A DNA stretch of 64,000 nucleotides from Escherichia coli (GTDB taxonomy: Bacteria > Pseudomonadota > Gammaproteobacteria > Enterobacterales > Enterobacteriaceae), in the NCBI RefSeq assembly GCF_036507355.1, contig NZ_AP027877.1. One strand, 5' to 3'. The notes under the pieces are model-generated. The model was not told where the DNA came from, did no database searches, and saw only the letters and a list, made by a program, of their open reading frames with translations. Of this stretch, positions 2,271-62,425 are shown in pieces; the first letter of the stretch is position 1; each line of letters opens with the position of its first letter. Made by a program: the position numbers and the translations under genes.

Positions 2271-2804
2271 ATGCGCCTGCTCCCTCTCGTTGCCGCAGCG
2301 ACAGCTGCATTTCTGGTCGTTGCCTGCAGTTCTCCTACGCCGCCGCGTGGCGTGACCGTAGTGAATAATTTCGACACCAAACGTTATCTCGGTACCTGGT
2401 ATGAGATTGCCCGTTTTGATCACCGCTTTGAACGTGGACTGGAAAAAGTCACCGCAACATACAGCCTGCGTGATGACGGCGGCCTGAATGTCATTAATAA
2501 AGGCTATAGCCCTGACAGAGGAATGTGGCAGCAGAGTGAAGGGAAAGCGTACTTTACCGGCGCACCAACTCGCGCTGCGCTGAAAGTGTCATTCTTTGGT
2601 CCTTTCTATGGCGGTTATAACGTTATTGCACTCGATCGGGAATACCACCATGCGCTGGTTTGCGGCCCGGACCGCGACTACCTGTGGATACTCTCCCGCA
2701 CGCCAACCATTTCTGACGAAGTGAAACAGGAGATGCTGGCAGTCGCGACCCGGGAAGGGTTTGATGTCAGTAAGTTTATTTGGGTACAGCAGCCCGGTAG
2801 TTAA
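2271..2804 (+). CDS. blc: Outer-membrane lipocalin Blc (177 aa)
   Basis: Track ORF 2271..2804; lipoprotein signal (LVVACSS lipobox) and lipocalin sequence recognised. Confidence 0.93.
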
Positions 2805-3118
2805 TGAGTGCTGAGTTTCAGACCAATAATCCCCAATACGATTAACGCCAGACTCGCCAGGCGCATCGGGTTAGCGGACTCACCGAGCAGCACAATGCCG
2901 GTGATGGCCGCGCCGACTGCGCCAATCCCCGTCCACACGGCATAAGCCGTTCCAACCGGTAACGATTTCATCGCCCAGGCAAGTAGCGCCATACTGACAA
3001 TCATCGCCGTCACGGTAATAACACTTGGCGTCAAACGACTAAAGCCGTGGGTATATTTCAGGCCAACGGCCCATACCACTTCCAGCAGACCAGCAATAAC
3101 TAAGATAATCCAGGACAT
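2801..3118 (-). CDS. gdx: SMR-family guanidinium exporter Gdx/SugE (105 aa)
   Basis: Within track ORF 2801..3181(-); start placed at Met 22 ([26 protein letters not shown]...) to match the known 105-aa four-helix SMR protein. Confidence 0.9.
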
Positions 3119-3732: not shown

Positions 3733-4299
3733 TTACTTCACGCGAGAGACGTATTCACCAGAGCGGGTATCCACTTTGATGACTTCGCCGATTTGTACGA
3801 ACAGCGGAACTTTAACCACAGCGCCAGTAGACAGGGTAGCCGGTTTGCCGCCAGTACCTGCGGTATCACCTTTCAGGCCCGGATCGGTATCAACGATTTC
3901 CAGTTCAACGAAGTTCGGCGGAGTAACGGAGATCGGCTGACCATTCCACAGAGTTACGATACACTCTGCCTGATCCAGCAGCCATTTAGCGTTGTCGCCA
4001 ATTGCTTTTGCGTCAGCAGACAGCTGCTCGAAAGTTTCGTTGTTCATGAAGTGCCAGAACTCACCGTCGTTGTACAGGTAAGTCAGGTTCATATCGACAA
4101 CATCAGCGCCTTCAGCGGAATCAGTAGATTTGAAGGTTTTTTCTACGCGAGTACCGGTCAGCAGACGACGCAGTTTAACGCGAGCAAATGCCTGGCCTTT
4201 ACCCGGTTTTACGAATTCACTCGCTTCAACCGCGTAAGGTTCGCCGTCTAACATGATTTTAAGACCAGCACGAAAATCGTTGCTATAGTACGTTGCCAT
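3733..4299 (-). CDS. efp: Elongation factor P (188 aa)
   Basis: Track ORF 3733..4299(-); [46 protein letters not shown]... with the modified Lys34 context KPGKGQA. Confidence 0.97.
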
Positions 4300-4340: not shown

Positions 4341-5369
4341 ATGGCGCATATTGTAACCCTAAATACCCCATCCAGAGAAGATTGGTTAACGCAACTTGCC
4401 GATGTTGTGACCGATCCTGATGAACTTCTGCGTCTTTTGAATATAGACGCGGACGAAAAACTGTTGGCCGGACGCAGCGCCAAAAAGCTGTTTGCCCTGC
4501 GTGTGCCCCGCTCATTTATCGATCGCATGGAGAAAGGCAATCCGGACGATCCTCTTTTGCGTCAGGTACTTACCTCGCAAGATGAGTTTGTCGTCGCACC
4601 CGGATTCTCCACCGACCCACTGGAAGAACAGCACAGCGTAGTGCCTGGTTTGTTGCATAAATACCACAACCGGGCGCTTTTGCTGGTCAAAGGCGGCTGC
4701 GCGGTAAATTGCCGCTATTGCTTCCGTCGTCACTTCCCTTATGCCGAAAATCAGGGCAACAAGCGTAACTGGCAAACTGCACTTGAGTATGTTGCTGCGC
4801 ATCCGGAACTGGACGAGATGATTTTCTCCGGCGGCGATCCGCTGATGGCGAAAGATCACGAGCTGGACTGGTTGCTCACACAACTGGAAGCCATCCCGCA
4901 TATCAAACGTCTGCGGATTCACAGTCGTCTGCCGATTGTGATCCCGGCACGCATCACAGATGCGCTGGTTGAACGCTTTTCACATTCTACGCTGCAAATC
5001 TTGCTGGTGAATCACATCAACCATGCCAATGAGATAGATGAAACATTCCGTCAGGCGATGGCTAAGTTGCGCCGGGTAGGCGTTACTTTGCTGAACCAGA
5101 GCGTTCTGTTACGTGGTGTGAACGATAACGCACAAACGCTGGCAAACCTGAGTAATGCGTTGTTCGATGCCGGCGTAATGCCGTATTACCTGCATGTGCT
5201 CGATAAAGTACAGGGCGCGGCGCATTTTATGGTGAGTGATGACGAAGCACGGCAGATTATGCGTGAGTTGCTGACACTGGTATCGGGATATCTGGTGCCG
5301 AAACTGGCGCGAGAAATTGGCGGCGAACCCAGCAAAACGCCGCTGGATCTCCAGCTACGCCAGCAGTAA
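4341..5369 (+). CDS. epmB: EF-P beta-lysylation enzyme EpmB (lysine 2,3-aminomutase family, 342 aa)
   Basis: Track ORF 4341..5369; radical-SAM CxxxCxxC motif (CAVNCRYC); divergent from efp as in E. coli. Confidence 0.95.
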   Translation: MAHIVTLNTPSREDWLTQLADVVTDPDELLRLLNIDADEKLLAGRSAKKLFALRVPRSFIDRMEKGNPDDPLLRQVLTSQDEFVVAPGFSTDPLEEQHSVVPGLLHKYHNRALLLVKGGCAVNCRYCFRRHFPYAENQGNKRNWQTALEYVAAHPELDEMIFSGGDPLMAKDHELDWLLTQLEAIPHIKRLRIHSRLPIVIPARITDALVERFSHSTLQILLVNHINHANEIDETFRQAMAKLRRVGVTLLNQSVLLRGVNDNAQTLANLSNALFDAGVMPYYLHVLDKVQGAAHFMVSDDEARQIMRELLTLVSGYLVPKLAREIGGEPSKTPLDLQLRQQ

Positions 5370-5400
5370 CTGATTAAACAGGGAAGTCAAACATTAAAAT

Positions 5401-5502
<102 letters not shown>

Positions 5503-5617
5503 GAGCAACAAACGCAAGTACAGCAACCTGTCATTAAACTGGGAAATTTAATCTTTGCCCGTTGCATAACCTTTAATTATTCATATGCATTGCTGTTGTT
5601 ACTCTTTATATAACTAA

Positions 5618-5626
5618 CACCAATAA
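5618..5626. repeat. Left copy of IS1 target-site duplication (CACCAATAA)
   Basis: 9-bp sequence immediately left of the IS1 end, identical to 6395-6403. Confidence 0.9.
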
Positions 5627-5681
5627 GGTGATGCTGCCAACTTACTGATTTAGTGTATGATGGTGTTTTTGAGGTGCTCCA

Positions 5682-5957
5682 GTGGCTTCTGTTTCTATCA
5701 GCTGTCCCTCCTGTTCAGCTACTGACGGGGTGGTGCGTAACGGCAAAAGCACCGCCGGACATCAGCGCTATCTCTGCTCTCACTGCCGTAAAACATGGCA
5801 ACTGCAGTTCACTTACACCGCTTCTCAACCCGGTACGCACCAGAAAATCATTGATATGGCCATGAATGGCGTTGGATGCCGGGCAACAGCCCGCATTATG
5901 GGCATTGGCCTCAACACGATTTTACGTCACTTAAAAAACTCAGGCCGCAGTCGGTAA
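5682..5957 (+). CDS. insA: IS1 InsA (91 aa; GTG start)
   Basis: Track ORF 5682..5957; [40 protein letters not shown]... zinc-finger InsA. Confidence 0.9.
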
Positions 5958-6379
5958 CCTCGCGCATACAGCCGGGCAGTGACGTCATCGTCTGCGCGGA
6001 AATGGACGAACAGTGGGGCTATGTCGGGGCTAAATCGCGCCAGCGCTGGCTGTTTTACGCGTATGACAGGCTCCGGAAGACGGTTGTTGCGCACGTATTC
6101 GGTGAACGCACGATGGCGACGCTGGGGCGTCTTATGAGCCTGCTGTCACCCTTTGACGTGGTGATATGGATGACGGATGGCTGGCCGCTGTATGAATCCC
6201 GCCTGAAGGGAAAGCTGCACGTAATCAGCAAGCGATATACGCAGCGAATTGAGCGGCATAACCTGAATCTGAGGCAGCACCTGGCACGGCTGGGACGGAA
6301 GTCGCTGTCGTTCTCAAAATCGGTGGAGCTGCATGACAAAGTCATCGGGCATTATCTGAACATAAAACACTATCAATAA
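5876..6379 (+). CDS. insB: IS1 InsB reading frame (transposase made as InsAB' by -1 frameshift at the A6C motif near 5934-5940)
   Basis: Track ORF 5876..6379 in the -1 frame relative to insA; AAAAAAC slippery run in the overlap; C-terminal sequence typical of IS1 InsB. Confidence 0.85.
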
Positions 6380-6394
6380 GTTGGAGTCATTACC

Positions 6395-6403
6395 CACCAA
6401 TAA
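6395..6403. repeat. Right copy of IS1 target-site duplication (CACCAATAA)
   Basis: Identical 9-mer directly abutting the right IS1 end. Confidence 0.9.
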
Positions 6404-6540
6404 TTAACCTTTCTTTTCTGTTTATATAGAGTGAGTACGGCTATTTATGTTATTTTAACAACTATTACTACCAAGCCCATTTATCTGGCTTATAAATTAA
6501 AATTAATTATTTAATTGAGAAATGGTTAGGGAGAACCTAC

Positions 6541-7410
6541 ATGGCCATAAGCATCAAGGGTGTTAATACCGGTGTTATTCGCAAGAGTAATAATTTCATT
6601 GCACTGGCGCTGAAAATTAAAGAACCTCGCAATAAAGAATCGTTGTTCTTTATGTCTGTCATGGAACTGCGCGACCTGCTGATTGCGCTGGAAAGTCGTC
6701 TGCATCAAAAGCATAAACTGGATGCTGCTGCACGCCTTCAGTATGAGCAAGCTCGCGATAAAGTCATTAAGAAAATGGCAGAAAACATCCCAGAAATTCT
6801 GGTTGATGAGCTTAAAAATGCCGATATTAATCGTCGGGTTAACACGCTGGAACTTACCGATAATCAAGGCGAAAATCTTACCTTCGTATTAACGCTACAT
6901 GACGGTAGCAAATGTGAGTTAGTCGTCAATGAATTGCAGATTGAAATGCTGGCGCGAGCAATCATTCATGCAATTAATAATGCAGAAATGCGCGAACTGG
7001 CATTACGTATTACCTCACTGTTAGATTTCCTGCCGTTATACGACGTTGACTGCCAGGAAAATGGCAATCTGGAATATGACACCTATTCCCAACCGGAATG
7101 GAAACATAACTTGTTCGACCATTATCTGGCGGTGCTTTACCGCTTTAAAGATGAAAGTGGCAAAGAACAATTTAGCGGCGCAGTGGTGAAAACGCGTGAA
7201 GCAACGCCGGGTAAAGAAATAGAGGCGATCACTCGCCGAATGCTTGATTTCAGCCCACGACTGAAAAAACTCGTGGGTGTGCCATGTCAGGTCTATGTTC
7301 GCACCGTAGCGGCGAATAACGCCCAACCGCTAACCCAGGATCAATGCTTACGCGCGCTGCATCACTTACGTGTTCAATCCACCAGCAAAACTGCACCACA
7401 GGCGAAATAA
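6541..7410 (+). CDS. yjeJ: Uncharacterised protein YjeJ (289 aa)
   Basis: Track ORF 6541..7410; sequence recognised as E. coli YjeJ; visibly AT-rich relative to its neighbours. Confidence 0.85.
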   Translation: MAISIKGVNTGVIRKSNNFIALALKIKEPRNKESLFFMSVMELRDLLIALESRLHQKHKLDAAARLQYEQARDKVIKKMAENIPEILVDELKNADINRRVNTLELTDNQGENLTFVLTLHDGSKCELVVNELQIEMLARAIIHAINNAEMRELALRITSLLDFLPLYDVDCQENGNLEYDTYSQPEWKHNLFDHYLAVLYRFKDESGKEQFSGAVVKTREATPGKEIEAITRRMLDFSPRLKKLVGVPCQVYVRTVAANNAQPLTQDQCLRALHHLRVQSTSKTAPQAK

Positions 7411-7478
7411 TCTCATCTTTGCTAATGCGAGGCTGGAGCCATCCAGCCTGAAATGACTGATAACGTGATCGTTGGTCA

Positions 7479-7580
<102 letters not shown>

Positions 7581-7602
7581 TTATACGTTTGTCACCATCA
7601 CA

Positions 7603-8093: not shown

Positions 8094-9761
<1,668 letters not shown>

Positions 9762-9792
9762 TTAAATTCGTATGTTCAGTGTCGTGCGAGGA

Positions 9793-10137
<345 letters not shown>

Positions 10138-24363: not shown

Positions 24364-25821
24364 ATGAAAACACCCTCACAGCCGCGCGCGATATACTATA
24401 TCGTGGCGATCCAAATCTGGGAGTACTTCAGTTTTTACGGCATGCGTGCCTTACTCATTCTCTATCTCACCCATCAGCTTGGTTTTGATGATAACCATGC
24501 CATCAGCCTGTTCAGCGCATATGCTTCTCTGGTTTACGTTACCCCTATTCTCGGCGGCTGGCTTGCCGACCGCCTGCTCGGCAACCGCACTGCAGTGATT
24601 GCCGGCGCGCTGTTAATGACCCTTGGCCATGTGGTGCTGGGCATTGATACAAATTCAACCTTTAGCCTGTATCTGGCGCTGGCAATCATTATTTGTGGCT
24701 ACGGTTTATTCAAATCAAACATCAGCTGTTTGCTTGGCGAGCTCTACGACGAGAACGATCATCGACGTGATGGCGGTTTTTCGCTGCTGTATGCTGCGGG
24801 CAATATCGGTTCTATCGCCGCCCCAATCGCCTGCGGCCTGGCTGCTCAGTGGTATGGATGGCATGTTGGCTTTGCCCTTGCGGGTGGCGGCATGTTTATC
24901 GGTTTGTTGATTTTCTTAAGCGGTCATCGTCATTTCCAGTCCACGCGTAGTATGGATAAAAAAGCGCTCACTAGCGTGAAATTTGCCTTACCAGTATGGA
25001 GCTGGTTAGTGGTGATGCTCTGTTTAGCCCCAGTATTTTTTACTCTGCTGCTGGAGAACGACTGGTCCGGATATTTGCTGGCGATCGTTTGCCTCATTGC
25101 CGCACAAATCATTGCCCGCATGATGATCAAATTCCCCGAACACCGCCGTGCTCTTTGGCAAATTGTATTGTTGATGTTTGTCGGGACGTTGTTCTGGGTA
25201 CTGGCACAACAGGGCGGCAGTACCATCAGCTTGTTTATCGATCGCTTTGTGAATCGTCAGGCATTCAATATTGAAGTACCTACTGCACTATTCCAGTCGG
25301 TGAATGCAATTGCGGTGATGCTCGCTGGGGTTGTTCTGGCCTGGCTGGCGTCGCCAGAAAGCCGCGGCAACTCAACATTGCGCGTCTGGCTGAAGTTTGC
25401 CTTTGGCTTACTGCTGATGGCTTGTGGCTTTATGTTGCTGGCATTTGATGCCCGACATGCAGCGGCTGACGGTCAAGCGTCAATGGGCGTGATGATATCC
25501 GGGTTGGCGCTAATGGGCTTTGCCGAACTCTTTATTGACCCGGTGGCGATTGCGCAAATCACGCGTCTGAAAATGTCTGGCGTATTAACCGGGATTTATA
25601 TGCTGGCAACAGGCGCGGTCGCCAACTGGCTGGCAGGCGTAGTGGCACAGCAGACGACAGAGTCGCAAATTAGCGGTATGGCAATTGCAGCTTACCAGCG
25701 ATTCTTTTCTCAGATGGGAGAGTGGACGTTGGCTTGTGTCGCGATCATCGTGGTATTGGCCTTTGCTGCCCGTTTTCTGTTTAGCACGCCGACGAATATG
25801 ATACAGGAGAGCAACGATTAA
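24364..25821 (+). CDS. dtpC: Dipeptide/tripeptide permease DtpC (YjdL, 485 aa)
   Basis: Track ORF 24364..25821; POT/PTR2-family signature with many TM segments. Confidence 0.95.
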
Positions 25822-27575: not shown

Positions 27576-27693
27576 ATTTCACTTTAATGAACGAAGCAGT
27601 CAGGCGACTGCTTCGTTCGTCGTTCCGCAAATCCAGTTTTGAGGAGAGACGCTTCGTTTCACGATAACCAGCGGGTCCACTCAACTACAGCTC

Positions 27694-27867
27694 CTAAAAG
27701 AGAGAAAAAAGTAATGCCACAGGCAGACTCATTGGCCAGGTTATTCCGACCAGGAATGCACTAAGTAAACGAATATGTGTTTTCTCATGTGAGATAAACC
27801 AGATAATGACAAAGGATATGTTCACACCAATCACATAAAAAATTAATATTTTAGAGAATAGTGCCAT
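27694..27867 (-). CDS. ghoT: Type V toxin GhoT, small membrane-lytic peptide (57 aa)
   Basis: Reverse-complement translation: MALFSKILIFYVIGVNISFVIIWFISHEKTHIRLLSAFLVGITWPMSLPVALLFSLF*; located by hand (below track cutoff); 27 bp downstream of ghoS on the same strand. Confidence 0.9.
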   Translation of the reverse strand: MALFSKILIFYVIGVNISFVIIWFISHEKTHIRLLSAFLVGITWPMSLPVALLFSLF

Positions 27868-27894
27868 TTTTTATGTTCTTCTTATCCTTCCTGG

Positions 27895-28191
27895 CTACTT
27901 GTAAAACTGACGGAAATAGTCATCAACTGTCATAATGTTGAGGTCAAAGTCAATATCCGGTAAGTCTAAGCATTTAAGCCTGATTAAATCTTCGATTTCA
28001 CTTGCGGCTAACGATGTCGTTATTGCGAAGGAGTTTTCATTCAATTGTCGTGGTATCCCATATTCATCAGCCACGATAGAGGAGAAATTCATATCATACA
28101 TCAATGATCTTAACCTTAAGAACACTGAGGAATAAGATGATGGATAATCAAAAGAAACAACATAAGTATTGAACTTGTTTTTACCTTCCAT
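27895..28191 (-). CDS. ghoS: Type V antitoxin GhoS, sequence-specific endoribonuclease (98 aa)
   Basis: Track ORF 27895..28191(-); MEGKNKFNTYVVSFDYPSSYSSVFLRLRSLMYDMNFSSIVADEYGIPRQLNENSFAITTSLAASEIEDLIRLKCLDLPDIDFDLNIMTVDDYFRQFYK. Confidence 0.9.
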   Translation of the reverse strand: MEGKNKFNTYVVSFDYPSSYSSVFLRLRSLMYDMNFSSIVADEYGIPRQLNENSFAITTSLAASEIEDLIRLKCLDLPDIDFDLNIMTVDDYFRQFYK

Positions 28192-28417
28192 AATATGACT
28201 CCTATCAATATTGAACGCTCTGGGGACGCAAAACTTATTAACCCCGATTGATGATTCTCATATAGGAGATATTCTTTTTTTTGCTCAGTAAAGGGGATGA
28301 CTTGGGACAAAAAAACGCGCTCTCTGCCCATTCTTTGTGCATCCCCCTACCCTTCAGATGCTCTCCTGCATCACACCGTGGAGAGCATGAAAAATATCGT
28401 GAATCTGTACTCTCCCA

Positions 28418-28690
28418 TCAACTGCGAATATCATCATACTCCCGCGTTTTATCAAATTCGTGTTTCGCAAATGGACATAATGGGATAATTTTTCGTTTTT
28501 CCCGACGCATTTTTTCCACGACTTTCGCAACCAGCTGTTTACCAATCCCTTGCCCTTTCAGGCTTTCATCGACATCGGTATGTTCGATAATCGCTAAATT
28601 CTCTCCGGTCGGCACAAAGACAATTTCAGCGATTTGCTTGCCCTGTTCATCATTAATGTAAAATTTATTGTAGCCTTCGCGTATTTCCAT
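28418..28690 (-). CDS. yjdJ: GNAT-family N-acetyltransferase YjdJ (90 aa)
   Basis: Track ORF 28418..28690(-); compact GNAT motif (QGIGKQLV). Confidence 0.85.
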
Positions 28691-28701
28691 TTTACCCTCG
28701 C

Positions 28702-28932
28702 TTATTTATGACGGTATTTCAGCGCGCCGCTCGGGCACGTATCAATCACTTTAACCACAGTGGTAACGTCGACTTCATCCGGCATGATCCACGGCTTTCG
28801 TTTGAGATTAAATAACTTGCCGTTGCCACGTACGCAATTGCCAGAATGCTGACATATCGCAGTATTGAAATAGACATCGATCTTTTCGCCGGTATAACAG
28901 CGATAACCCCCGTCCAGTAGCGCCTGATCCAT
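28702..28932 (-). CDS. yjdI: Uncharacterised Cys-rich protein YjdI (76 aa)
   Basis: Track ORF 28702..28932(-); recognised as YjdI; conserved cysteines suggest a metal-binding fold. Confidence 0.85.
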
Positions 28933-35847: not shown

Positions 35848-35862
35848 CAACGTGCACTTTGT

Positions 35863-35965
35863 TGATGCCGGATGCGGCGTGAATTCCTTATCCGGTCTAC
35901 AAAATTTGCAAATCCAAAGCATTACATTAAGACGTGGCCTGATAAACATATCGCATCAGGCCATT
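35863..35965. repeat. REP/BIME element
   Basis: GATGCCGGATGCGGCGTGAATTCCTTATCCGGTCTAC ... GGCCTGATAAACATATCGCATCAGGCC; boundaries approximate. Confidence 0.65.
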
Positions 35966-40254: not shown

Positions 40255-42522
40255 ATGAAAGTATTAATTGTTGAAAGCGAGTTTCTCCATCAAGACACCT
40301 GGGTCGGTAACGCCGTTGAGCGTCTGGCAGATGCTTTAAGCCAGCAAAATGTTACCGTGATTAAATCCACCTCCTTTGATGATGGTTTTGCCATTCTCTC
40401 TTCAAACGAAGCCATTGACTGCCTGATGTTCAGCTATCAAATGGAACATCCGGACGAACATCAAAACGTCAGACAATTGATCGGTAAGCTTCATGAGCGC
40501 CAACAAAACGTGCCGGTCTTCCTGTTGGGCGATCGGGAAAAAGCCCTCGCCGCAATGGATCGCGACCTGCTGGAGCTTGTCGATGAATTCGCCTGGATTC
40601 TGGAAGATACCGCCGACTTTATCGCCGGACGCGCCGTTGCCGCGATGACCCGCTACCGCCAGCAGCTGTTGCCGCCACTGTTCAGCGCGCTGATGAAATA
40701 TAGCGACATCCATGAATATTCCTGGGCAGCGCCAGGCCACCAGGGCGGCGTTGGTTTTACCAAAACACCCGCCGGACGTTTCTACCATGACTACTATGGT
40801 GAAAATCTGTTCCGCACCGATATGGGCATCGAACGAACTTCCCTCGGTTCTTTGCTTGACCATACTGGCGCATTTGGCGAAAGCGAAAAATATGCCGCAC
40901 GCGTATTTGGTGCCGATCGCTCCTGGTCGGTAGTCGTCGGTACTTCCGGCTCTAACCGCACCATCATGCAGGCTTGCATGACCGATAACGATGTCGTGGT
41001 CGTTGACCGTAACTGCCATAAATCCATCGAACAAGGCTTGATGCTGACAGGCGCGAAACCAGTCTACATGGTGCCAAGCCGCAACCGCTACGGCATTATC
41101 GGGCCAATCTATCCGCAGGAAATGCAACCTGAAACCTTGCAGAAGAAAATCAGTGAAAGCCCGCTGACTAAAGACAAAGCCGGGCAAAAACCGTCTTACT
41201 GCGTGGTGACCAACTGCACCTATGACGGCGTGTGTTATAACGCTAAAGAAGCGCAGGATCTGCTGGAAAAAACCTCCGATCGTCTGCACTTTGACGAAGC
41301 CTGGTACGGCTATGCACGTTTCAACCCGATCTATGCCGATCACTATGCCATGCGCGGCGAACCTGGCGATCACAACGGTCCTACCGTTTTCGCCACCCAC
41401 TCCACCCACAAACTACTGAATGCGCTGTCACAGGCCTCTTATATTCATGTACGTGAAGGTCGTGGGGCGATTAACTTCTCCCGCTTCAACCAGGCCTACA
41501 TGATGCATGCCACCACCTCCCCGCTGTATGCCATCTGCGCATCCAACGACGTGGCGGTGTCGATGATGGACGGCAACAGTGGCCTGTCACTGACGCAGGA
41601 AGTGATCGACGAAGCGGTTGATTTCCGTCAGGCGATGGCGCGGCTGTATAAAGAGTTCACCGCTGACGGTAGCTGGTTCTTCAAACCGTGGAACAAAGAA
41701 GTCGTCACCGACCCACAAACCGGCAAAACCTATGACTTTGCTGACGCGCCAACCAAACTGTTGACCACCGTTCAGGACTGCTGGGTAATGCATCCGGGCG
41801 AAAGCTGGCACGGCTTCAAAGATATTCCGGATAACTGGAGTATGCACGACCCGATTAAAGTCAGCATCCTTGCTCCGGGAATGGGTGAAGATGGTGAACT
41901 GGAAGAAACCGGTGTTCCGGCGGCGCTGGTCACTGCCTGGCTTGGTCGCCACGGCATTGTGCCTACCCGCACCACTGACTTCCAAATTATGTTCCTGTTC
42001 TCTATGGGCGTAACCCGTGGGAAATGGGGGACTCTGGTTAACACCCTTTGCTCCTTCAAACGCCACTATGACGCCAACACACCGCTGGCGCAGGTGATGC
42101 CGGAACTTGTTGAACAATATCCTGACACTTATGCGAACATGGGGATTCACGATCTGGGTGACACCATGTTTGCCTGGCTGAAAGAAAACAACCCTGGCGC
42201 ACGGTTGAACGAAGCCTATTCCGGCCTGCCGGTGGCGGAAATCACCCCGCGTGAAGCGTACAACGCGATTGTCGACAACAATGTCGAACTGGTATCCATT
42301 GAAAATCTGCCAGGACGTATCGCGGCAAACTCAGTTATCCCGTATCCGCCAGGAATCCCGATGCTGCTGTCTGGTGAAAACTTCGGCGATAAAAACAGTC
42401 CGCAAGTAAGTTATTTACGCTCGCTGCAATCCTGGGACCATCATTTCCCTGGATTTGAACACGAAACTGAAGGGACTGAAATTATTGACGGTATTTACCA
42501 CGTTATGTGTGTGAAAGCGTAA
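40255..42522 (+). CDS. adiA: Biodegradative (acid-inducible) arginine decarboxylase AdiA (755 aa)
   Basis: Within track ORF 40252..42522; start at second Met (MKVLIVESEFLHQDTWVGNAVERL...); clear paralogue of CadA in this window. Confidence 0.97.
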   Translation: MKVLIVESEFLHQDTWVGNAVERLADALSQQNVTVIKSTSFDDGFAILSSNEAIDCLMFSYQMEHPDEHQNVRQLIGKLHERQQNVPVFLLGDREKALAAMDRDLLELVDEFAWILEDTADFIAGRAVAAMTRYRQQLLPPLFSALMKYSDIHEYSWAAPGHQGGVGFTKTPAGRFYHDYYGENLFRTDMGIERTSLGSLLDHTGAFGESEKYAARVFGADRSWSVVVGTSGSNRTIMQACMTDNDVVVVDRNCHKSIEQGLMLTGAKPVYMVPSRNRYGIIGPIYPQEMQPETLQKKISESPLTKDKAGQKPSYCVVTNCTYDGVCYNAKEAQDLLEKTSDRLHFDEAWYGYARFNPIYADHYAMRGEPGDHNGPTVFATHSTHKLLNALSQASYIHVREGRGAINFSRFNQAYMMHATTSPLYAICASNDVAVSMMDGNSGLSLTQEVIDEAVDFRQAMARLYKEFTADGSWFFKPWNKEVVTDPQTGKTYDFADAPTKLLTTVQDCWVMHPGESWHGFKDIPDNWSMHDPIKVSILAPGMGEDGELEETGVPAALVTAWLGRHGIVPTRTTDFQIMFLFSMGVTRGKWGTLVNTLCSFKRHYDANTPLAQVMPELVEQYPDTYANMGIHDLGDTMFAWLKENNPGARLNEAYSGLPVAEITPREAYNAIVDNNVELVSIENLPGRIAANSVIPYPPGIPMLLSGENFGDKNSPQVSYLRSLQSWDHHFPGFEHETEGTEIIDGIYHVMCVKA

Positions 42523-42845
42523 CCACTATTCCGCTGAAGGCGTAATTGTTTAAATAACATTACGCCGCCTGGCCTTAGGCCTTTTGAGTATGGCAACGTT
42601 TTCATAAAAATTGCTGCAAACAAAAATGTCATACTTTTTGCGCGGCCCCACCCCGCGCTTTTTTTGCCTGTTATTTATCCTGTAAAAAAATATGTACACG
42701 AGAAATTACTATAAAAATTTGTAATATTAGTAAAACTCGTTATTTTTATGCATGTTTATATTCATCATACAATTATATAACCATTTCCCGGTATCGCTTT
42801 GCTTTAGCGAGAACTGGTCTTTTATTCGCACTCAGGAGTACATGT

Positions 42846-43607
42846 ATGAGGATTTGCAGCGACCAACCTTGTATTGTTTTATTGACTGAAAAAGATGTCT
42901 GGATAAGGGTGAATGGGAAAGAACCTATTAGCCTTAAAGCTAACCATATGGCGTTATTAAATTGTGAAAATAATATTATCGACGTCTCCTCTCTTAACAA
43001 CACTTTGGTTGCTCATATTAGTCACGACATCATCAAAGATTACCTCCGGTTTCTGAATAAAGATCTCTCGCAAATACCAGTATGGCAACGTAGCGCTACG
43101 CCCATCCTCACCCTGCCATGCCTGACGCCAGACGTCTTTCGCGTTGCCGCGCAACACAGCATGATGCCCGCAGAAACTGAGTCAGAAAAGGAGCGAACAC
43201 GCGCATTATTATTCACGGTGCTATCCCGTTTTCTCGACAGTAAAAAATTCCTTTCATTAATGATGTATATGTTACGTAATTGTGTAAGTGACAGCGTTTA
43301 TCAAATTATTGAAAGCGATATTCACAAAGACTGGAATCTTAGTATGGTAGCCAGTTGTTTATGTCTTAGCCCAAGTCTGTTAAAGAAAAAGCTGAAAAGC
43401 GAAAACACCAGTTATAGCCAAATAATCACCACCTGCCGCATGCGTTATGCCGTAAATGAATTAATGATGGACGGTAAAAATATCTCCCAGGTATCACAGT
43501 CCTGCGGCTACAACAGTACGTCGTACTTTATTTCTGTCTTTAAAGACTTCTACGGTATGACGCCGCTGCATTATGTTAGTCAGCACAGAGAACGCACTGT
43601 CGCCTGA
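42846..43607 (+). CDS. adiY: AraC-family regulator AdiY (253 aa)
   Basis: Track ORF 42846..43607; C-terminal AraC HTH; located between adiA and adiC. Confidence 0.93.
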   Translation: MRICSDQPCIVLLTEKDVWIRVNGKEPISLKANHMALLNCENNIIDVSSLNNTLVAHISHDIIKDYLRFLNKDLSQIPVWQRSATPILTLPCLTPDVFRVAAQHSMMPAETESEKERTRALLFTVLSRFLDSKKFLSLMMYMLRNCVSDSVYQIIESDIHKDWNLSMVASCLCLSPSLLKKKLKSENTSYSQIITTCRMRYAVNELMMDGKNISQVSQSCGYNSTSYFISVFKDFYGMTPLHYVSQHRERTVA

Positions 43608-43743
43608 TTTTTAACCTTAACGAAGAGCTATATTAATAACGGCATCAGCGATAACCCGGTCGATAATAATTCAACTATCGAATGCAGGCGTATGATATGA
43701 CGTAATTTATTGTCACGAAGCTCGCCTTCGCAGGAGTTTAATT

Positions 43744-54380: not shown

Positions 54381-54392
54381 TTGTATTGTGAT

Positions 54393-54545
<153 letters not shown>

Positions 54546-57015: not shown

Positions 57016-57105
57016 CGTAGGTCGGATAAGACGCCCCGGCGTCGCATCCGACAATGTGCAGGCGTTGATGCCGGATGCGGTGCAAGCACCTTATCCGGCC
57101 TACAG
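57016..57105. repeat. REP/BIME element
   Basis: GTAGGTCGGATAAGACGCCCCGGCGTCGCATCCGACA ... GATGCCGGATGCGGTGCAAGCACCTTATCCGGCCTAC; boundaries approximate. Confidence 0.65.
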
Positions 57106-57118
57106 ACCGGAGCCAAAC

Positions 57119-61580: not shown

Positions 61581-62335
61581 ATCAACCGTTACTTTCGGTC
61601 AATAACCTGACCCACCTTTACGCGCCGGGCAAAGGCTTTAGCGATGTCTCTTTTGATTTATGGCCGGGGGAAGTGCTGGGCATTGTCGGGGAGTCCGGCT
61701 CCGGGAAGACCACGCTGCTGAAATCAATCTCCGCGCGCCTGACGCCGCAGCAGGGGGAAATTCACTACGAGAACCGTTCGCTGTATGCAATGAGCGAGGC
61801 CGACCGCCGTCGCCTGCTGCGCACCGAATGGGGCGTGGTGCATCAGCATCCGCTCGACGGCCTGCGCCGCCAGGTCTCAGCAGGCGGCAACATCGGCGAG
61901 CGGCTGATGGCGACCGGGGCGCGTCATTACGGCGATATTCGCGCCACCGCGCAGAAGTGGCTGGAAGAGGTGGAAATTCCCGCCAACCGGATCGACGACC
62001 TGCCGACCACCTTTTCCGGCGGCATGCAGCAACGTTTGCAGATTGCCCGCAACCTGGTGACGCATCCGAAGCTGGTATTTATGGACGAGCCAACCGGCGG
62101 GCTGGATGTGTCGGTGCAGGCCCGCCTGCTCGACCTGCTGCGCGGCCTGGTGGTGGAGCTGAACCTGGCGGTGGTTATTGTCACCCATGATTTAGGCGTC
62201 GCCCGCCTGCTGGCGGACCGTTTGCTGGTGATGAAGCAGGGGCAAGTGGTGGAGAGTGGGTTAACCGACCGCGTGCTCGACGACCCGCATCATCCGTATA
62301 CACAGCTGCTGGTGTCATCGGTTTTGCAGAATTGA
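61577..62335 (+). CDS. phnK: C-P lyase-associated ATP-binding protein PhnK (252 aa)
   Basis: Within track ORF 61547..62335; start ATG 61577 ([15 protein letters not shown]...); Walker [10 protein letters not shown]. Confidence 0.95.
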
Positions 62336-62338
62336 GCC

Positions 62339-62425
62339 GGTGCCGGATGCGGCGTAAACGCCTTATCCTGCCTACAAATGCGCTCCCCGTAGGTCGGATA
62401 AGACGCGTCAGCGTCGCATCCGACA
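62339..62425. repeat. REP/BIME element
   Basis: GCCGGATGCGGCGTAAACGCCTTATCCTGCCTAC ... GTAGGTCGGATAAGACGCGTCAGCGTCGCATCCGACA; boundaries approximate. Confidence 0.65.

Follow-up and report, generated by a model that had tools for sequence, protein, structure and literature searches.

A complete IS1 element with a 9-bp target-site duplication in the AT-rich epmB-yjeJ spacer of an Escherichia coli genome

The insertion described here lies between epmB and yjeJ, in a stretch of 64,000 nucleotides of an E. coli genome, called the window below. The genes and repeats that surround it are the following:

1049-2182, ampC, ending 3.4 kb to the left of the IS1
3733-4299, minus strand, efp
4341-5369, plus strand, epmB, encoding a radical-SAM protein (homologous regions are annotated EpmB)
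about 5395-5509, REP/BIME palindromes, about 120 bp to the left of the insertion
5510-6540, the target, i.e. the non-REP part of the epmB-yjeJ spacer, with 29.9% G+C when IS1 is left out, versus 50.9% for the whole window
6541-7410, plus strand, yjeJ (Pfam PF15922)
about 7462-7585, second REP cluster, to the right of yjeJ and followed by yjeI
8094-9749, minus strand, groL, beyond yjeI

A previous reading of this DNA, made from the sequence only, had placed an IS1 between epmB and yjeJ, just beyond a REP cluster, and these neighbors were borne out by the coordinates, by the Pfam match of YjeJ and by the annotation of homologous regions. IS1 lies upstream of yjeJ, at a distance of 137 bp from its start codon, and has the orientation of both epmB and yjeJ. 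A search of NCBIfam models gave no match from which a function of YjeJ could be read. REP/BIME elements are defined as imperfect palindromes of about 35-40 bp that have the REP consensus and recur at many intergenic sites, often in inverted pairs, and we take the cluster at 5395-5509 to fit this consensus. Its copies, both direct and inverted and 62-95% alike, were found at 7462-7585, 35849-35903, 54389-54437, 57052-57106, and 62324-62378. The gene yjeJ (45% G+C, with an upstream region of 30%) is bracketed by two inverted REP/BIME clusters, 5395-5509 and 7462-7585, that lie about 2 kb apart and have arms 83-95% complementary. In two of the compared loci (L002 and L003), the left cluster of about 145-160 bp is missing, leaving a spacer of 235 bp versus 395 bp. 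Other mobile elements were also seen in this neighborhood: strain EM06-18-14 (locus L031, positions 2760-3101) carries an IS621 of the IS110 family just past yjeJ, near the REP cluster, while locus L007 (positions 8632-9840) has a gene for a 402-aa DDE_Tnp_1 transposase between yjeI and groL. An IHF site at the target was considered and rejected, as the only nearby match to the IHF consensus fell within the right end of IS1 itself (6371-6383) and the total number of matches in the window was no higher than expected by chance.

The inserted element and its parts are as follows:

5618-5626, left copy of the target-site duplication, 9 bp, CACCAATAA (the empty site in strain MG1655 and in locus L001 holds this 9-mer once)
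5627-6394, plus strand, complete IS1 element, 768 bp
5627-5649, plus strand, left terminal inverted repeat (IRL), GGTGATGCTGCCAACTTACTGAT, a unique exact match
5634-5661, promoter-like site of IS1 itself, CTGCCA-16-TATGAT, inside the left end (from a consensus scan)
5682-5957, plus strand, insA, 91 aa, GTG start, with a zinc-binding region (match to the zinc-binding domain model NF050000) and a helix-turn-helix region
5876-6379, plus strand, insB' or insB frame, a 167-aa open reading frame counted from the first ATG, the catalytic part of the InsAB' transposase
5931-5939, plus strand, programmed -1 frameshift motif TTAAAAAAC (A6C), joining insA to insB' to give the transposase
6372-6394, minus strand, right terminal inverted repeat (IRR), GGTAATGACTCCAACTTATTGAT as read on that strand
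6395-6403, right copy of the target-site duplication, 9 bp, CACCAATAA

The extent first proposed for it, a complete 768-bp IS1 within a perfect 9-bp target-site duplication, turned out to be exact to the base. Its length and its terminal repeats are those of IS1 elements (about 768 bp, with imperfect repeats of about 23 bp); IRL and IRR agree at 18 of 23 positions, both are canonical, and GGTGATGCTGCCAACTTACTGAT occurs once in the 64-kb window, where none would be expected by chance. The duplication likewise has the length usual for IS1, for which 8 bp or longer is sometimes found. It comprises exactly 9 bp, since the base to the left of the copies is A in one case and C in the other, while the right-hand neighbor is the IS1 end at one copy and TTAACC at the other. 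As the 9-mer occurs five times in the window, the evidence resides in its placement exactly at both ends of IS1 and not in its rarity; the chance of 9-bp identity at two fixed positions is about 4^-9, i.e. 4e-6.

The coding content also corresponds to IS1, with overlapping insA and insB' frames joined by a -1 frameshift at A6C. Simulation of this shift yielded an uninterrupted fused protein of 232 aa, which scored 244.8 bits against the curated IS1 transposase model NF033558 (transpos_IS1; cut-off of 100 bits), covering profile positions 1-199 of 199, and which also matched the IS1/IS1595 zinc-binding domain model. In its DNA sequence, the element is nearly identical to reference copies. With the most frequent variant in E. 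coli, which NCBI annotates as 'IS1-like element IS1A family' and whose transposase is WP_103215986.1, it shares 767 of 768 bases (99.9%), along with length, ends, reading frames, and frameshift site; that variant occupies another genomic location, as exemplified by strain CP53 (NZ_CP033096.1, 782951-783718). The single difference, at IS position 278 (window 5904), where the window has A and the common variant G, changes V75 of InsA to I and R10 of the unfused insB' frame to H. IS1A of E. coli K-12 MG1655 (NC_000913.3, 19796-20563) has the same length and organization and shares 765 of 768 bases (99.6%), the three differences at IS positions 278, 444, and 486 resulting in V75I in InsA and S65R in InsB. 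The V75I change is conservative and affects a residue of the DNA-binding part of InsA. In a collection of 5426 complete RefSeq E. coli genomes (which leaves Shigella outside), no IS1 copy was 100% identical to that of the window and every best match had one mismatch; the private base may therefore predate or postdate the insertion. Judged from its intact ends and reading frames, this copy looks transposition-competent.

For comparison with uninterrupted loci, the empty site was rebuilt by deleting IS1 and one copy of CACCAATAA, and the resulting 300-bp query was scored as present at a coverage of at least 80%. It was found in 5354 of the 5426 genomes, two of which were 100% identical to it. 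The sequence-only reading had stated that MG1655 has no IS1 here and had asked whether the empty site reads CACCAATAA once; the 394-bp epmB-yjeJ spacer of that strain indeed has no IS1 and a single CACCAATAA. Furthermore, contigs encoding a YjeJ protein identical to that of the window, and themselves 98.1-99.3% identical to it, all have the empty site: their alignment breaks off at position 5626 and is taken up again at 6395, the two parts overlapping by 9 bp. Both flanks are thus colinear with empty sites, and the spacer is restored by removing IS1 and one repeat, as expected of the simple, unrearranged transposition that had been claimed. No other IS1 ends or long repeats were detected in the 64-kb window, hence nothing points to recombination between two IS1 copies, to a duplication, or to a composite transposon. 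The element is a known one, the event is an ordinary one of a well-known kind, and nothing contradicts a simple insertion. Our reading, to which we assign a probability of about 0.93, is that a standard IS1 transposed into the AT-rich epmB-yjeJ spacer and has not been rearranged since, that the insertion is confined to the source genome or to the unsampled lineage around it, and that it is most likely neutral.

According to established IS1 biology, the InsAB' transposase would have been produced through the -1 frameshift at A6C and would have bound both 23-bp ends of a donor IS1 located elsewhere in the cell. The ends would then have been joined to a staggered cut in the target, 9 bp apart, and repair of the gaps would have given rise to the duplication of CACCAATAA. 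The choice of this site probably reflects the preference of IS1 for AT-rich DNA together with the tolerance of insertions here, the latter because yjeJ is dispensable in nature (see below). Papers on IS1 reportedly describe a frameshift-dependent transposase, an involvement of H-NS, and repression by read-through.

The exact junction, searched from either side as a single full-length match, was present in none of the 5426 complete genomes. A 29-base string spanning the left junction was likewise absent from 100,044 species-representative genomes and from metagenome contigs (241 million records). As far as these collections show, the insertion is private to the source genome or to its unsampled lineage. 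The closest relatives of this genome among the 5426 were 99.4% identical over 23.6 kb (window 6404-30000) and included O157:H7 strains, whereas the best identity was only 98.2-98.5% over 24 kb around adiA-eptA-proP (window 40000-64000). From these sequence comparisons, the source genome seems to come from an under-sampled lineage of E. coli; the EpmB allele is shared too widely to tell lineages apart. The genes of the window are in normal order, and cadC, cadB, and cadA all have full-length frames. Shigella was considered as a source on account of its IS1 load and was judged unlikely, since the 64 kb contain a single IS and the cad frames are complete, while Shigella is established to lack lysine decarboxylase. 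Since the 5426 genomes hold no close relative, a strain-specific insertion is not separable from one specific for the lineage. The proposal that the insertion is strain-specific was therefore upheld only in part: the junction was indeed seen nowhere else, while the distinction from an insertion shared by an unsampled lineage was not achieved.

The same lack of a near relative leaves room for a different history, in which the insertion arose long ago and became fixed in an entire E. coli lineage or clone instead of being a recent event in a single strain, as sister strains could share it unseen. The private base of the copy, unmatched by any other IS1 of the 5426 genomes, would allow it some age, and other IS1 insertions at this locus are common to small groups of clones (five 20AR/21AR/22AR/18AR genomes; the CX/AH/CT group). 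However, the duplication is perfect and the element fully intact, the junction is missing from both the species-representative genomes and the metagenome records, and the contigs that share the identical YjeJ protein are all uninterrupted. We consider such an old, lineage-fixed insertion unlikely, though by no means far-fetched.

The insertion found in the window has counterparts in other genomes. A query composed of 127 bp of the left flank, the IS1, and 997 bp of the right flank revealed an IS1 within about 1 kb in approximately 55 other genomes of the 5426, 25 in the same orientation and 30 inverted. We mapped 26 copies in 25 other genomes and found them scattered over window positions 5430-7030; 17 of them had 9-bp duplications, four had 8-bp duplications, and five were accompanied by adjacent deletions. 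At least eight of these events interrupt or delete the coding sequence of yjeJ, which indicates that the gene is dispensable in nature. None of the 26 mapped copies was inserted at the same nucleotide as that of the window, while four independent events lay no more than 20 bp from its site (in empty-site coordinates). All four are in the same spacer and differ from the window insertion in their junctions: the duplication corresponds to window 5612-5620 in EC23HZZ201, to 6408-6416 in ET745, and to 6413-6420 in AZ 186, whereas in the CX12 group an inverted IS1 has its junction at 5621, with a deletion. Unlike the element of the window, some of the four are inverted, some are divergent iso-IS1 copies (93% identity), and in one case the adjacent DNA has been deleted.

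The same search design was applied to control stretches of the window, with the following results for IS1 in one orientation:

epmB-yjeJ spacer and yjeJ, 41.7% G+C, 25 genomes with IS1
adiA-adiY (42501-43624), 39.9% G+C, 21 genomes with IS1
lysU-ghoST-yjdJ (27601-28724), about 40% G+C, 17 genomes with IS1
dtpC interior (24501-25624), 52.1% G+C, 4 genomes with IS1

The idea of the epmB-yjeJ spacer as a special hot spot for IS1 was rejected on these grounds, since the AT-rich controls gather IS1 about equally (21 and 17 versus 25) and only the gene of typical G+C content stands apart with 4; the apparent local 'hot spot' should thus not be over-read. With so many independent IS1 hits in this AT-rich stretch, the insertion in the window is no singular event, and the pattern is that of the known AT preference of IS1 combined with the survival of insertions where they do little harm. 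As a calibration, IS1 in one orientation was found in 17-25 of 5426 genomes for each AT-rich, dispensable stretch of about 1.1 kb, compared with 4 for a coding stretch of typical G+C content; these counts, which are modestly useful, quantify the known AT preference and the tolerance bias of IS1 in natural genomes.

An effect of the insertion on yjeJ had also been suggested, in that IS1 would add outward-reading promoter potential next to this gene. This suggestion did not hold up in the promoter predictions: strict and relaxed -35/-10 scans both failed to find a pair with its -35 box inside IS1 that would span the right junction, and a hybrid outward promoter at this end was therefore rejected as a candidate. 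The weak promoter-like sites predicted between IS1 and yjeJ are identical with and without the element, while the insertion separates the two halves of a weak pair predicted in the empty site, GTTACT-18-AATAAT. We infer that the insertion is probably selectively neutral.

The neighborhood of ampC calls for a separate consideration. Experiments with E. coli evolved under amoxicillin have repeatedly placed an end of ampC amplicons in the yjeJ/epmB spacer and have located IS1 at amplicon junctions (PMC12625342, PMC8430887). These amplicons come from the same chromosomal neighborhood as the IS1 of the window, but they are laboratory rearrangements with a raised copy number, whereas the window holds a single IS1 and an ampC region that is not duplicated. 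They provide a local illustration of the remaining claim of the sequence-only reading, namely that IS1 creates a substrate for recombination, which stands as a generic statement. One could suppose that the insertion was selected, either because it altered transcription of yjeJ, by cutting off control DNA or by read-out from IS1, or because an IS1 boundary eases ampC amplification under beta-lactams. The placement of the element, 137 bp ahead of yjeJ and codirectional with it, its distance of 3.4 kb from ampC, the split GTTACT-18-AATAAT pair, and the recurrent amplicon boundary in laboratory evolution would all fit this supposition. However, the scans predict no hybrid promoter across the right junction and the other weak downstream sites are unchanged; only one IS1 is present in the 64 kb, hence the window contains no amplification unit; the IS1 copies of other genomes are scattered, in both orientations and also inside yjeJ, which speaks for tolerance rather than for selection of one outcome; and other AT-rich stretches gather IS1 at the same rate. 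Selection for the insertion is thus very improbable, and it would be similarly surprising if the insertion proved non-neutral, with an IS1 3.4 kb from ampC predisposing the lineage to ampC amplification and beta-lactam resistance, or rewiring the expression of yjeJ. Finally, although IS1 is multicopy in most E. coli genomes (median of about 10-11 matched places) and its repeats might be collapsed or wrongly placed by an assembler, a misplaced IS1 can hardly be credited here, as an assembler would not flank an element with a perfect 9-bp duplication of a unique target, the left and right flanks each match the empty site in precise colinearity, and the copy has a private base of its own.

For a simple and most likely neutral transposition, the realistic consequences are generic, namely 768 bp of homology for IS1-IS1 recombination, a possible duplication or amplification of ampC, and a source of adjacent deletions, which in other genomes measure 130 bp to 1.7 kb and represent the other typical outcome of IS1 insertion. 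Being just another IS1 copy of E. coli, the insertion matters little. Its exact junction, seen nowhere else, is usable as a marker of the strain or lineage, and the element flags a possible point of recombination or deletion near ampC.

Several of the IS1 copies mapped in other genomes have features of their own. Copies that are devoid of a target duplication and have lost the sequence on one side were found in PO06101 and J3 (loci L026/L027; window equivalent 5460-7152), 3PT (L019; 6620-6907), the CX12 group (L034; 5622-6445), and SC516 (L036; 5442-5573). The IS1-adjacent deletions at these loci range from about 130 bp to 1.7 kb and have removed part or most of the spacer and yjeJ. In EC23HZZ201 (L020), two direct IS1 copies (locus positions 1795-2562 and 3356 onward), one in the spacer 6 bp from the site occupied in the window and the other near window 7188, bracket most of yjeJ and form a unit that resembles a composite transposon. 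The 8-bp duplications (loci L029, L023, L025, and L012) were seen in three of six divergent iso-IS1 copies (93-97% identical to that of the window) and in only one of 15 near-identical copies that retain a duplication, a difference which, with such small numbers, may be due to chance.
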